Shown here one piece after another: positions 26,741 to 37,698 of a stretch of DNA of 64,000 nucleotides. The DNA is taken from NCBI GenBank assembly GCA_024679065.1, contig JAGIQG010000020.1, positions 8,680,001 through 8,744,000 on the forward strand, read 5' to 3'. Below the pieces are notes generated by a model, which made no database searches, was not told the origin of the DNA, and was given only the letters and a program-made list of their open reading frames with translations. The DNA comes from Sphyrna mokarran. Lineage: Eukaryota. The stretch's first letter is position 1. Every line of letters begins with the position of its first letter. A program made the position numbers and the translations under genes.

Positions 26741-29708
26741 CATCAAGATAGATATATGATATACAGTAAAACTTCTAAAGAAATGCAGTAGCTCTGTATG
26801 GAATCATATTATCATTTAAGTCTGCAAAAGCCCCTCAAAAGTAACACAAAACATTACTTCATGGCTGATTTTACACACATAGTTAACAAAAATGTACTGA
26901 ATACAAACTGGATCAAGGATTTTCTCTATGGAATATTTTGAGAGCTATCTATTTGAGAAACCTGTCTCAATTTTTGAAAGCCTTCTTTCATCAAACCTGT
27001 TTCTTGCAATTTAGCCAGAGGAAATGGACCCCATTTAATCTAAAATGTTAATAATGCAATAGGAAATATTGCAATAGACAACAAAAGAGCAGATTTGACA
27101 AGACGAATGATGGATTGGAGATAGGGGATCAAATGCACTAATGTTAGCTGAAATATCATCAGAAGTTTTATAGGTCACAATCTAAGTGTTGGAGCCATTT
27201 TGGTCATTAAAATATTTGACCACCCATGTAATGGTGATTTCTTAATGTTAGTTCTCAAGTGAAGGCAAATTCCATGGTCGACTAGACCATGCTCATATTT
27301 TACTCTTTTGAATATCTTAATGTAACCATAGAACCATTGAAAGTCATAATGTAGAGGGGGCCATTAACCTTAATGGGCAGGAATTTACAGCCTTGCTTAT
27401 CTGAAAACCATGAAGGTCCCATTGTCCATCCCTCACCCATTCTGATTCCTGTAGCTGGTAAGGGTGTAAAATTCCAATCAATGTGTCTGTGCTGGAAAGA
27501 AAGTGTAAAATGAAGCTAGCCATTCATTTTTATTTCCTTTTCCAGCACCTACTCTGTTGACTTGCAGTTTACAGCACTTCAGATGCAGGTCCATGGAACT
27601 TTTAAATATGGTGAGCATTTCAGCCTCAACCATCAATTAGGCAGTGAATTCCAGACACCCATCATTCTCTGGGTGAAAACCTTTCTCCTCATGTCCATCT
27701 TAACCTTTATACCAGTCACTTTAAATTCATGTTCGCAGTGATTGACCCTTCAAATAAGTGGAAACAAATCTTTCTTGTTTACCTTATTTAGGGGCCCCAA
27801 AATTTTGTACACTAAGGAGAAGCAACACTGAGCAGATACGAAATGGAAATTCCAGTCTGATTGCCAACGCTTTCAGCCGGACACTGTCCGATCAACCAAA
27901 AGCTAATATATCCTGCAAGCTGGTCCTAACTCCTGAAGTGTAAGGAGATCATCACAAACCAAGTGTACTGTCATGATTCACTCTGTCCATGCGTAACAAA
28001 ACTCTCTCTGGATCAGATGTATTAAATGTTCCTCAATAGGTGTTAAGTCCTTGCATGCCCCCATTGGTTAAACAATAATAAAATGAAACAAGCTGTTACA
28101 GAAGTAAAATACAGTTGGTGCTGGAAATCTGAAATAAAATCAGAAAATGTAAAAAATACTGAGCATTTGTTTCTGGGTTAAGCAGGTAGTCCTTCCATGT
28201 GAGGTTGAGTAAATTGGAACTATATGTGCTGAGGTTTAGAAGACTGAGAGGTAATCTCATTGAAAGATAGAAGGTTCTCAAGGTGTTTGAGATGGTAAAA
28301 AGTTATTAACTTGGTTGGGAAATATAGAACACGAGGATGTAATTATAGGGTAAAGGTACAATCATTTCCGATTGCAATGAAGCAAAATTCCTCCAATCAC
28401 AGAGTTGTGAATCTTTAGAATTCTATAACCTACTGGGCTTTGGACATCCCATTTTCAAATATCTTTAAGGCCGGGATATACAAATGTTTGATCACTCAGG
28501 AAATTGAGAGATATGGAAATTAGCTGGCAAAATTGAGTAGAGTCAGAAGATCAGGAATTTCAAAAAGAATGATGGATCAGTCTCCAAGGGCAATACAGTA
28601 TATCCCTAGTTTCTTTCACAGCATTCTACCATTTACCATTGTCTGATTTCACCTTCCTGTAATTTTTATTCCTTACTCAACTGCTAAAGTACTGGTCAAA
28701 TTCCATTTTTTTTCATACTATTCATGGGCACCCTTGGCAAGGTTGCCACTTATTGCCCATTCCTAATTGCTCTGGAGAAAGTACTGATGAGCTGTTTTCT
28801 TAAACTCTTGGTGTTTATGTGGTGTAGGCACATAGAGTGTTGGAAGAGAATTTTTATTTGACTTCTCTGAAGTGGTGTCATGCAACTGGCTTGATTTCAG
28901 AAGGCTCTGGGTCTGGATTTACATGTTATGTAGTGTGAGGACATCAAATATCCTCCCAGGATATGGTTGAAGATTATTAGTGAACTAGAGTGGATTTGAC
29001 ACTGACCACAACAATTATGGCTAGCAGAGCAAATCAGAGACCCCTGCAGTGAGTAACATATCTCCTGACTCTTCAAAACTTGTCCACCATCTACAAGGTG
29101 CAAGTCAGCACTTGAAGGAATTACCCCAAAAGGACTCAGGAAGCTCAATATGATCCAGGGAAAATCAGCACACTTGTTTGGCAACCCATTCACCACTAAA
29201 AACATTTACTCCTGCCACCACTGGTGCAGTGGGAGCAGCAGCTGCCAGTTGTGAGATGCAGTGCTGCAACTCACTAAAGTAGATATTAGCTTCCAAAGCC
29301 ATGACTTTTATACCACTTAGAAGGATAAAGGCAGCAGATGCATGGGAACACCATAATGTGCAAGTTAACTTCCAAACCACACACCTTGGAACTACACTGT
29401 TCCTTCACAGTCAAAATCCTGGATATCCTCCTGGACAATATGAAGGGATCAGCATCACATGCACTGGAGCTGGTAATGACGACCTCACCAAAACCTTCTC
29501 AAAGGCAATTAAGGATGGGCAATAAATGCTGTCCAGCTAATGCTATTCACATCCTGCAAAATAATGAAAAAAATATAATGACAGAAGGAGATATGGTTCT
29601 GTCAGCTGGCTTGGTGTATCTGCTCAGGAAAACCTTGGGTCAGACCATTCCAAAGTTTGAATGGGACACATAATTGGAAAATGTGCACTGTTTGAAAATA
29701 ATTGTCAT

Positions 29709-29968
29709 GATGTGGAGTTGCCGGCGTTGATCTGGGTAAAATACAGTAAGAAATCTCACTACACCAAATTAAAGTCCAACCAGTTTATTCGATAGTAAAC
29801 CCACAAGCTTTTGGGGTTTGCCCCTTCATCAGGTGACAAAATCTATAAATTTTAACTAAGCAAACTATTATGGCCTCACCTGAGGAAGGGGCAAACCCCG
29901 AAAGATTGTGGGTTTACTATCAAATAAACTGATTGGACTTTAACCTTGTGTTGTGAGACTTCTTACTG
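29709..29968. mobile_element. Penelope-like pLTR inverted pair with two minimal hammerhead motifs
   Basis: Arms 29744-29836 and 29876-29968 are reverse complements; CAC-CTGAGGA-A-GGGG caaa CCCC-GAAA-GA-TT-GTG at 29877-29910. Confidence 0.7.
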
Positions 29969-30996: not shown

Positions 30997-31204
30997 CAAA
31001 ATACTGCGGATGCTGGAATCCAAAACAAAACAGAAAATGCTGGAAAATACTCATCAGGTCTGACAGCATCTGTGGAGAGAGAACAGAGCTAATGCTGGGA
31101 CTCTGGATGGCCCCACATCCAGACTCGAAGCGTTGGTTCTACCCTTTCTCCACAGATGTTGTCAGGCCCGCTAAGATTTTCCAGCATTTTTTTTTGTTTG
31201 GATT
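30997..31204. mobile_element. Second Penelope-like pLTR family, inverted pair inside a SINE (related pieces at ~11941-12710 and ~33308-33460)
   Basis: aaatactgcggatgctgg...cagcatctgtggagag mirrored by ctccacagatg...ttccagcatttt; the 12-kb copy carries an NIEFNSFR ORF end and a decayed CTGA..A...GAAA motif. Confidence 0.6.
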
Positions 31205-33205: not shown

Positions 33206-34141
33206 TATTTGAAACGAGGGACCCCATTTCATTAATTCGACGGTTTGAATGGGAAAGCTTAATAGTACAGATACCTTTAGCTACTGGCAACTACATCACG
33301 AGCGAATTATTGCGGATGCTGGACTCTGAAAGCAAAAGAGAAAATGCTGGAAAATCTCAGCAGGTCTGGCAGCCTCTGTAAGGAGAGAAAAAAGCTGACG
33401 ATTCGAATCCAGATGATCCTTTGTCACTTTTGACTCTTTACTCTCCTGACAGTTGCTACATCAAGATCATATGCCAGAGAGACGCCTGGCAAAATATGTA
33501 CCCAGAACGGCAGCAATGATAAAGGAGGATAAACAGTTCTAACGAAGGAGGGTTGTTTGTATGTTAAAGCTTTAGAGTGTTGTTTACAACATGGTTGTTA
33601 ATGGTAATATTCTGAAATGTACACTGTAATTTTGTATTCCGATTGCTTTCTGATATACAGTTTAAAGTCTGCCACTGTAGTACTGAATACATTTGTGTTT
33701 TTCCTAATGTAGATTCTGTTGAGGAATTACTAAAATTTTCGTAGCGACTATATCATTGGAATTATTACTGGGAAAGCAATTGTAACCCGAGGAAATTAAT
33801 TAAAATTTCCGTTTATCGTGACCTGCTTTGTGATGTTCCGAGGCGTTCCGAGTAAAGATTAATATGTAAAATAATCGAACGAGATTAAATTACATTACAT
33901 TTGGAAACGAGGATAGATCTTTATAGATACGGGTGGAGAAGGAAGCTTGTCTGAATCTCCCCTTCTGCAACAGATTAAAAAAAAACTTTATTCCAATTCA
34001 ATCCAATCAAATCAAATCCAATTCAGAGTCTCAGCAAGTTGGGACATTCCCGATCCAAGCTGACAAGACAGAGTTCTCACCTCCTGTCTTGGGTTTTATC
34101 AACAAGATCCAAGCTGCTGAACGCATGACTTCCATATTTCG

Positions 34142-34303
34142 ATGTAGAGATGCCGGCGTTGGACTGGGGTAAACTCAGTAAAGTTTTGCAACACCAATTT
34201 AAAATCCAACCAATTTATTTGATAGTAAATCCACGAGCTCGTGGATTTACTATCAAATAAATTGGTTGGATTTTAAATTGGTGTTGCAAAACTTTACTGA
34301 GTT
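34142..34303. mobile_element. Penelope-like pLTR fold-back insertion containing a 132-bp perfect palindrome
   Basis: 34172-34303 is its own reverse complement; flanked by TTCCATATTTCG direct repeats. Confidence 0.8.
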
Positions 34304-37300
34304 CCATATTTCGTACAGGGAAGTTTCGGTTGTCTTAGGTACTTTGTTTTGTACTCAGGGCATAACAGTGCGAGGATATCGCTTTCACAATATGTATTCA
34401 TTTTCACTTCACCTGATATTCGATTCAATTGGTTTTTTTTTAGTTTAACTAGCGTCACCGCACTTGGAAGTTAGTTCGAGGTCAGCTAAAATTGCGCCAC
34501 AGCGACACTTGTTGATGACTGAAGGAAAAGCTCTTTCAGTCGGGCTCCCAGCCACGGTGACTGGAAGCAAAATTGTTCACTGTCCTTCCTACAGCTACAG
34601 GAGGCGTGATTCCTCAGCGAAATGAATGAAAATAATATAGGGCGCAGGTACAAAGAGATAATCTTAGGTGGAGATGAAATAAATATAATGCAATCACATA
34701 CTGGGATTTAAAATAAACTCTCAAAATGATTTGAAATTGATATCAATTATGGTTGCTGTATGGAATGTGATGGGAGGTGGCGTGATATAGAGGCGGCTTC
34801 TAACCAAAGCATAAATGAGGCAATATAATTCTGAAGTATACCTGTAAAATCATTTTCTTTAATGTATAAAGTTTTGCTTATGCTGAATAAAGTTTAATCA
34901 CCACACTAATCCAATTGATGTCATTGTCGAATCACTTGAAACCAAAATGTAAAAGAAATGAACACAACGAAATTTCATGAGTGGGAATTGTACCCTTACT
35001 GGCACTCATATTTTCAGAAATATATAAGCTAAGAAAATGTCCACATCTTCTGACATGGAAAAGGGGGCAGTGACACATTCTTAATAAGACATTCAATATG
35101 AAGGAGATGATGGTATCAGAAAATAATGAATAAACAGAGAAATTTCATTGAACTGTCCTAGTCTGATATAGGCTATCACCCAACAATGTGGCAGGAGCTG
35201 AGGACGTGAAAGGAACTTATAAGTAATAAATTAGAAGTTGCGGTAAATATTGGAAACATTGCTGTCAAGAAGTAACACATGCATTCGACTCTAATCAATT
35301 CTGGTTAATCTCGATTATTTGCTTTTGTCTTCAGTTTTGAATGAAATTATTAATATTGAATTGACACCTACAGCCGAGGTCGCTCTGTTCGGTCCTTCGT
35401 CAGCTTTTGACTCTCCACCTCAGGGTATCCATGTTATGTAAACAGAAAACGGTTCTATCAGATTCTAAGTAGTCATTTTGGAAATACAACTGATACCCAA
35501 TTTCTCATGAAAACTCGATTCCAATAAATAACGATTGTTATTGTACATAACTGCTACGGTAAACATCATGTAAGTTATTATTGACTTCATTAAATTAAAT
35601 TACCATTCATGCCACATAAACACAGTGGCTACAATGGCAAATTAGAAGTGAGGAATACTGGCGAGTAACTCACCTCCTGATTCTCTAAAGCCTGTCCACC
35701 ATCTACAAGGCACAGTTCAGGAGTGTAATGGAATATCCCCTACTTGCTTGGATGAGTGCAGCTCCAACAACAATCAAGGAGCTTGACGCTATCTAGGACA
35801 AAGCTTGCTTATTGGCATTCATCCGCAAATACCCACTCCCCCCACCATTGACGCTCAGTAGCAGCAGCGTGTACTATTTACAAGATGTACTGCAGAAATT
35901 CACCAAAGATTCTGAGACAGTACCTTCCAAACCCATGACCACATCCAGCTAGAAGGGTAAGGGCAGCAGATACATGGGAAAACCACTCCCTGCAAGTTCC
36001 CCTCCAAGGCACTCACCATCCTGACTTCGAAATGTATCACCCTTTCTTCGCGGTCGCTTTGTTACAATTCTGGAATTCCCTTCCTAAAGGCATTGTAGTC
36101 AACCCACAACACATGGACTGCATTGTTTCAAGAAAGCAGCTCAACATCACCTTCTCAAAGGCAACTTAGGGATGGCCAATGGATGTTAGCCAGCCAGCGA
36201 CTCCAATGAATTAAAGATCATCTCAGGTTATTGTTAAGCAGATGAAGGAATAGTTTAGAGGTGTAGACAACATCTAAATACCGAAAACTTTCTGTTTCCA
36301 ACTCTTTCTCTGTCATCACCTCAGTATCTTGGATTGGGTCATGTAACTACATCTCTTTTTGCTCTACTTGATTCCTAGTATCTTAAAGTGCGTACTTGGC
36401 AAATTCAGGAGACATTTCTAGGTATAACTAACTACTGTTCTGTATATGGATCTAACAAAAGGCCTTTTCCCGAAATGCTGCTGGGTTCATGAGCTAATCC
36501 ACATGGATAATGACTATAATGCTGCGCCATGCTGTCAACTTATAACATCAACAATTTACCACTAAATGGGAATACCCGCTATTGCGGCTAAATGTTCTTG
36601 TCTATTTAGAATTCATCACCAACAAGGGAAGAAGCCGTTGGGACATAGAAATTGTTCTCAACAAACAAGGGGGACACAAAAGGGTCAGGCAAACATAAAA
36701 AGAAATGTTCGCCCGAATAGAACATAGAAACCCTACAGTGCACAAAGAGGCCATTCAGCCCATGAGTCTGCACCGACAACAATCCCACTTATGACCCTAT
36801 CCCCACATTTTTACCGGCTAATCCCTCTAAGCTAGGCATCTCGGGGTTCTAAGGGGCAATTTAGCTTGGCCAATCCACTTAACCCGCACATCTTTGGACT
36901 GTGGGAGGAAACGGGAGCACCCGAAGGAAACCCACGCAGACACGGGCAGAATGTGCAAACTCTGCACAGGCAGTGACCTGAGCTGGGAATTGAACGCAGG
37001 TCCCTGGACCCGTGAAGCAACAGTGCTACCGTGCTACCCACAACGTAGTAAGTAAAAGTGATCAGATCGAGGCCAGGTTATCAAAAGTGTTAATAGTAAT
37101 TAATATATTCAATAGGCCTAAGAAAAGAAATAACATCAAAATCAGATGGAGAATTTCTTGTTCATGTTTGATCTGATTCCATGAGCCTTGGAGTGATCAG
37201 TGATCCTAACAGCCACAATGGCTGATGCCAGTGTATAATTCCCACCATCTGACAAGTATAAAACCTTTCACTCTGCATCTGTCTCTTAGTGAATTTCATG

Positions 37301-37519
37301 TTCTATAATGTTCCTGTGCTTTAAGCTCACGGACTTCAATTTTCCCAAAAGCCGATGATGTGATAGTTTATTGAACGATTATAAAAAAGTCTGATCTACA
37401 ATCTCGATATATCTACCCTCAGACCGATCAGGGTAAATAGTTAGCATTGATGATAAAATGACATTGCATGAGATGTAATTCCCTAGTGAAATTAATCTGA
37501 CTAAATGGGACAGACTTTA

Positions 37520-37698
37520 AAAAGTCTCGCAGCATTAGGTTAAAGTCCAACAGGTTTATTTAGAATCACTAGCTTTCTGAGCGCTGCTCCTTCATCAGCT
37601 CAGCGCTCCTAAAGCTGGCGATTCCAAATGAACCTTAACCTATTATTTTGAAACTTCTTACGATGACCATCCCAGTCCAATGCCGGCACCTCCACCTC
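37520..37698. mobile_element. Penelope-like pLTR inverted pair with a hammerhead motif on the minus strand
   Basis: Minus 37598-37567: CTGATGA-A-GGAGC agc GCTCA-GAAA-GC-TA-GTG. Confidence 0.7.

Follow-up and report, generated by a model that had tools for sequence, protein, structure and literature searches.

The exact palindrome near the middle of the window (the whole 64,000-nt stretch of Sphyrna mokarran DNA analysed here) belongs to a young, dead, 5'-truncated and inverted stump of an abundant Penelope-like element (PLE), predicted to be of Neptune type. Its two arms meet at AGCT, a junction that recurs at at least 16 loci. AGCT is a true recurrent junction, yet a secondary one: it is one of several inverted microhomologies used by the family, and not the commonest. 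We consider it rather likely that such insertions form from two cDNAs, one on each target strand and both derived from one source RNA, that are end-joined at a complementary word. Ribozyme cutting most likely played no part at the window locus.

The palindrome is exact over 66 + 66 bp (34172-34303, centred between 34237 and 34238), as originally predicted; the next longest exact palindrome within the 64-kb window has 9-bp arms. The flanking 12-mer has exactly two copies in the window, starting at 34130 and 34302. Both copies of the repeat described in the original prediction are thus present, but the left one is set apart from the palindrome by an unpaired tail of 30-31 nt (34141/2-34171), which is part of the element, and the right one shares 2 bases with the palindrome, which puts the true arm length at 64-66 bp. 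The suspicion that this repeat is a target-site duplication was justified, and its length matches the family range of 11-16 bp. The order across the insert is duplication, tail, arm, AGCT, inverted arm and duplication (Table 1). A one-sided tail, an inverted truncated copy and a target duplication are the marks of an insertion by an endonuclease-bearing (EN+) PLE, and all three are found here.

Table 1. Coordinates of the palindromic insertion and of the two older inverted insertions in the window.
Feature	Position	Strand	Remarks
Left target-site duplication copy	34130..34141	.	G34141 possibly element-derived
One-sided 31-nt tail	34141..34171	-	30-40-bp PLE tail in PMC3846280 and in parts of PMC8557442 and PMC11167929
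Tailed arm = element 3' end (pLTR), 5'-truncated at hammerhead loop	34172..34239	-	Sense strand minus
AGCT junction, 4-nt self-complementary overlap common to both arms	34236..34239	.	Equals 15.1-loop-16.1 of parent hammerhead
Tailless inverted arm	34236..34303	+	Ends at 34-36 on the family ruler (usual range 29-41); last 2 bases in duplication
Equivalent of predicted ribozyme cut (after GCTC)	34240..34241	+	Predicted from hammerhead consensus; 3 nt from palindrome centre; core absent
Mirror of predicted cut position	between 34234 and 34235	-	
Right target-site duplication copy	34302..34313	.	
Older inverted insertion, related family	29709..29968	.	Arms of 93 bp (89% complementary), each with one decayed hammerhead; spacer of 39 nt; tail on left
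Older inverted insertion, more distant family	37518..37698	.	Tail right; one hammerhead core on minus strand

The elements at 29.7 and 37.5 kb had been assigned to the family of the palindrome. They represent related families, not the same subfamily: the palindrome arm aligns to the 29.7-kb element with 80 identities, 19 mismatches and 2 gaps, and to the left arm of the 37.5-kb element with 50, 19 and 6, respectively. The hammerhead end claimed for the equivalent positions holds at 37.5 kb, where the loop is intact, but the core end is mutated in each of the 29.7-kb arms. Also present in the window is an imperfect inverted pair of another repeat family (31022-31195; 65-bp arms, 74% complementary, 6-nt spacer), of which a single copy lies at 33329-33415; this family is possibly a further Penelope-type end. 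Two diverged copies of a longer repeat (29051-29528 and 35663-36170; 74-84% in ungapped blocks) are probably LINE fragments, to judge by resemblance. A lower-copy repeat lies at 33996-34083, about 50 bp left of the insertion, and read depth is raised there.

A 35-letter pattern spanning the boundary of tail and arm occurs 2658 times, without mismatch, in the element's own 2.77-Gb genome; we fetched the 100 matches listed, all on contig C1 and corresponding to 99 loci. Several of these loci are collinear for more than 2 kb, and the tail and arm are collinear with RT-encoding copies of over 2.5 kb, which bears out the proposed Penelope-like origin. Frames of parent copies match the RT family of Pfam (PF00078) at 35-36 bits, above the cut-off of 29.6; no Pfam family was matched by the endonuclease part of these frames. 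In the translations of L131 and L104, the RT is followed by a CX4CxxC linker and then a GIY-YIG-type region whose motifs have two cysteines between them. Read against the description in parts of PMC8557442, these motifs correspond to a C-terminal GIY-YIG endonuclease with CCHH. An RT, a CX2-5CxxC linker and a GIY-YIG with CCHH form the layout given there for Neptune and Nematis. The parent is a putative Neptune-type retrotransposon, assigned by its layout, with a linker that is common to Nematis. Its partial tandem arrangement (pLTR) was identified in L192, where a 454-nt truncated copy lies directly 5' of the full unit and the following unit's open reading frame has its start codon directly at the tail end. 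L192 is a full-length partial tandem of the parent, with a unit of ~3.0 kb and one in-frame stop.

In 602 kb of fetched DNA, the parent pLTR yielded 163 matches to a minimal hammerhead core, 156 of them with a GC loop. The core comprises CUGAYGA, stem II and GAAA-GC-UH, and common types have a 6-bp stem I, a 3-5-bp stem II and a palindromic loop 3. With these boxes and stems I and II present, the parent pLTR is predicted to carry a minimal type-I hammerhead, and the placing of the junction at the AGCT of its stem-III loop in the original prediction was correct. The palindrome itself was considered as a ribozyme and rejected: of the hammerhead it retains no more than AGCUC and the stem-I 3' strand, and it is unable to fold into a ribozyme, since the CTGA.GA box and stem II are absent from 34130-34313, where the sole GAAA lies within the duplication. 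An Rfam scan of the window gave no hammerhead model, only sub-threshold miRNA matches that are due to the hairpin shape. At other loci (L009, L011 and similar), the junction runs through stem-I words, so that the hammerhead core survives intact and is closed off by the long inverted arms, which would make stem I much longer.

Junctions were placed on a coordinate ruler for the family, derived from 18 long copies, on which AGCT is at 98-101 and the predicted cut is between 96 and 97. The position sample consists of 97 loci, after removal of L048 (the same element as L047) and L021 (a segmental duplicate of L020), and is drawn from half of a single contig and a single young subfamily; the junctions of L066, L081, L088, L109 and L111 were set by eye. 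An inverted arm was identified within the fetched spans of 1.5-2.7 kb in 60 of the 97 copies, and three ran off the span. Arm ends range from ~70 to >2500 on the ruler. Their distribution is non-uniform, as the original prediction required, with a peak at 128-145 and a small bump at 96-101. The peak, just 5' of the ribozyme core, holds 32/154 ends (0.013-0.018 per nt at risk). Inverted and plain truncated copies alike stop most often in this zone (e.g., L020, L029, L036, L039 and L092), which could be the transcript 5' end or an RT stop. The bump holds 6/154 arm ends (0.007 per nt vs ~0.002 on either side), four of which belong to just two loci centred on AGCT, L125 and L066. Of the 34 non-inverted truncations, none ends at 96-101, at the loop or cut site.

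AGCT forms the junction in 2 of the 60 inverted copies sampled by position. Genome-wide junctions were counted with one pair of 12-letter outer anchors, which replaced earlier subfamily-specific patterns (3 and 10 loci); tallies were read by eye, and the counts are lower bounds. In the set of 174 loci whose gaps measure 26-56 nt, 15 of 19 anchored matches are AGCT-centred and the other four are different junctions of the same length. TCGA, five bases from AGCT, was found at one anchored locus. The ratio of 15 to 1 has a raw p = 0.0005, and is 7 to 1 (p = 0.07) in TCGA-carrying subfamilies, which were split by eye. Several other words are used. GCA-AA-TGC, at 130/135 just upstream of the ribozyme, accounts for 34 clean cases among 41 anchored loci, and for 107 matches without anchors. 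ATAGT/ACTAT, an inverted pair of 5 nt separated by a 19-nt loop, occurs 8 times (9 with a variant), vs 5 for AGCT, among the first 50 of the 174 loci, and an AAATTT centre occurs 3 times among the first 50 of 99 loci. Perfect spacerless palindromes are also centred on GATC, AGTACT, GTGCAC, AAATTT, TCCGGA, TTCGCGAA and TCTGCAGA; no spacerless palindromes of other families were found in a 602-kb scan. The AGCT preference is modest and partly unexplained, plain microhomology accounting for it incompletely. We attribute the use of AGCT to the presence of this palindrome in nearly every subfamily, as the ribozyme conserves AGCT, and not to ribozyme cutting.

We examined 16 AGCT-centred loci (the 15 anchored loci and L002). 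The tail is one-sided in every case, and 14 loci have a duplication of at least 10 bp. Their tailless ends differ, at least four arm haplotypes are represented, and the arms differ from each other at 0-6 positions. The AGCT-centred loci are independent events. In L149 (= L125), the AGCT centre is followed on the right by 40 bp of tailless arm, a short insert, a second AGCT-centred fold and then the duplication, making two folds within one insertion. A MITE or other self-mobile hairpin was rejected as an explanation, given the differences in haplotype and tailless end among the 16 loci and the continuous variation of junction positions across the family.

The 99 nt of tail and arm of the window copy have zero mismatches to 10 other fetched loci, which were partly chosen by patterns favouring its sub-lineage. 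Three non-majority bases common to both arms mark this sub-lineage, which is present at other loci. At family rates, the chance of no mismatch over 66 pairs is 0.15-0.21. Perfect arm identity reflects youth, and youth suffices. Of the two explanations first offered for this identity, recent origin stands, on the strength of the 10 identical loci, but arm-to-arm conversion is unneeded. There is no sign of conversion in arm-arm mismatch per site (2.4% in 17 symmetric vs 2.8% in 43 asymmetric copies) or in shared private variants per site (0.0006 vs 0.0015, respectively).

An assembly artefact (a fold-back chimera) is extremely improbable. None of the public reads or contigs compared spans the locus; the reads come from another sample (runs X1 and X8-X10; two samples at most) at a depth of <1x per run, with 0-2 reads per run on the unique flanks. 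No empty-site joint was found among the joints listed, in tables that are swamped by family reads and with the same low read count on the flanks. The argument for a real locus comes from the duplication at both ends, the one-sided tail, the canonical tailless end and the 15 other loci with the same centre, 14 of which have 1-6 arm mismatches.

The two ends of an inverted copy are coupled. Arm ends lie within 1 nt of each other in 12/60 copies (0.9 by permutation, p < 1e-4) and within 25 nt in 32/60 (8.4 by permutation, p < 1e-4); outside the main peak, coupling is seen in 8/44 (vs 0.3). Matching ends are found far into the element too (425/425, 558/545 and 2070/2094). The arms of an insertion also nearly always share one source haplotype: subfamily-diagnostic bases are discordant between arms at 0/57 in symmetric copies and 15/186 in asymmetric copies, where 38% is expected for random pairs. 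In a few long asymmetric insertions (L128 and L068), the arms are discordant at several diagnostic sites, as if they came from two source copies or from two units of a tandem. Coupled arm ends and a single source haplotype make it likely that the arms are two cDNAs from one RNA.

In the mechanism that we favour, the endonuclease would nick both target strands ~12 bp apart. Reverse transcription would begin outside the tail at one end and inside the tail at the other, and the template of both cDNAs would be a single RNA, or RNAs from a single source copy, with synthesis halting at comparable positions. The end-joining machinery of the host would then trim each 3' end as far as a complementary word before filling in. 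Target duplications are 11-16 bp in 43/48 inverted copies (mode 12), and tailless ends fall at 29-41 in 46/48. An overlap of at least 3 nt is present at 14/30 junctions without inserted bases (~5% at random). Inserted bases occur at 28/58 junctions, a few of which are possibly miscalls from stem-II variation. The tail may be on either arm, and is on the shorter one at 6/16 GCA-AA-TGC and 5/9 ATAGT/ACTAT junctions (12 of the 16 former loci are from the top of the list, and the nine latter are from the first 50 listed). L047 and L077 have a tail on both arms. The tailless arm is >25 nt longer than the tailed arm in 10/60 copies, with an extreme of 2426 vs 329. In vitro, as described in parts of PMC11167929, a Poseidon-clade PLE protein cuts and extends both strands and uses two start sites bounding the tail. 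Several points weigh against formation from two cDNAs: this in vitro support comes from a Poseidon-clade element and the parent here is putatively Neptune-type, the route from one RNA to two cDNAs is a proposal only, and a single symmetric locus fits two cDNAs, fold-back or later central deletion alike.

Coupled arm ends and a shared haplotype would also follow from fold-back self-priming, in which a cDNA ending at AGCT pairs with itself or with a twin and copies back, after which the endonuclease removes one tail. This was proposed for Penelope palindromic junctions (PMC3846280), and the commonest junction found here, GCA-AA-TGC, is a mini-hairpin. AGCT has no loop, however, and an intramolecular fold would be sterically poor. 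Extra steps would be needed for the tail on the short arm in 11/25 hotspot junctions, for tailless arms up to 2.1 kb longer than their partners and for the frequent inserted bases. The strand switching or self-priming at AGCT of the original prediction is a possible route, but not the best fit, and we regard it as unlikely.

The palindrome may instead have been a longer, two-hammerhead inverted copy whose central part was deleted, through slippage or repair, between two AGCT words; these words are repeats in direct as well as in inverted orientation. Nearly precise excision of Tn10 is an analogue of such deletion between short repeats. The same sub-lineage does include longer copies with two hammerheads (L004), and arms with internal deletions at short repeats were identified (L066). 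The window copy, however, is free of mutations relative to its ten sister loci, so there was little time for a later deletion; loss of the spacer would also lower the stability of the locus, and symmetric junctions with inserted bases are left unexplained. We judge later deletion improbable.

In its strongest form, the original prediction would give the ribozyme a special part in the junction: either template RNAs dimerise via AGCU loops or cleavage occurs nearby, so that both RTs stop and join there. Recurrence of the AGCT centre in at least four arm haplotypes and its excess over neighbouring 4-mers agree with this, as does retention of the GC loop in nearly all core matches; the palindromic loop and its proposed dimer function are described in parts of PMC4209133 and PMC6765202. 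This special link did not hold up. AGCT is not the commonest junction and is rare in the position sample, plain truncations do not stop at the loop or cut site, and the main stop zone is elsewhere. Ribozyme mutants of a Poseidon-clade element insert normally in vitro, according to parts of PMC11167929. Cleaved RNA was rejected as a template at the window locus: both arms run past the predicted cut, and the six bases GAGCTC between the stem-I strands, at least one of which every arm must contain, are missing from the 3' product of cleavage. This excludes cleavage as the source of the ends at this locus. A ribozyme-driven junction is thus very improbable. Elsewhere, CGCG-type and CG centres beside the cut account for 3 and 4 clear cases of 26 loci, and for up to ~11 if ambiguous or near-symmetric cases are included; both arms end within 2-3 nt of the cut site at about 7-11 of the 26. 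Some cleaved RNA may be used at such loci. We find it very doubtful that a ribozyme dimer organises a two-template complex, in which AGCU-joined RNAs would each be reverse-transcribed from one side of the cut and AGCT palindromes would be the footprint. If this were true, PLE hammerheads would gain a role that cleavage assays have missed.

In summary, the window locus is mostly ordinary in kind: the family has thousands of copies, and at least 16 loci share this form. The significance of the family lies in the countable footprints that it offers: coupled arm ends, one source haplotype per insertion, a tail that may sit on either arm, and hotspots of joining at short inverted words. Such footprints speak for two-ended priming rather than simple self-priming, and are suited to the published in vitro system.

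In LINE-1 twin priming, the second target strand primes a second cDNA, the junction has microhomology, and one duplication encloses the insert. The inverted part in LINE-1 is a different, non-overlapping segment, whereas both cDNAs here would start in the same 3' region and the arms duplicate each other. Palindromes at inverted PLE junctions were described, and self-priming proposed, in 2013 (PMC3846280), and the mechanism of PLE inverted insertions is still called undefined in parts of PMC8557442; parts of PMC8969392 served as background only. In the literature searched, an incomplete coverage of main texts, we found no paper linking an inverted junction to the hammerhead loop. The Adineta vaga elements Pen2, Pen2a and Pen3a (PMC3846280) are alike in having an inverted 5'-truncated copy and a 31-nt one-sided tail, as in the general scheme of the Fig. 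2 legend in PMC8557442, and also a short target duplication and a palindrome at the inverted junction. Unlike in those elements, both arms here are shortened to 64-68 nt, leaving an insert that consists of a spacerless hairpin and a tail; its junction palindrome coincides with the hammerhead loop, and duplications are 11-16 bp. With Neptune-type PLEs, as described in parts of PMC8557442, the parent shares the RT, the CX4CxxC linker and the two cysteines between GIY-like and YIG motifs. The predicted ribozyme of the parent resembles the minimal type-I hammerheads of metazoan PLEs described in parts of PMC4209133, of which the palindrome keeps only AGCUC and the stem-I 3' strand. Non-LTR retrozymes (bioRxiv 10.64898/2026.07.22.740005, in part) and MITEs are similarly small, non-coding, and pLTR-derived or hairpin-shaped. 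In contrast to these, the insertion has no tandem units and no intact ribozyme, and nothing points to the hairpin moving as a unit, because ends and haplotype are particular to each AGCT-centred copy.
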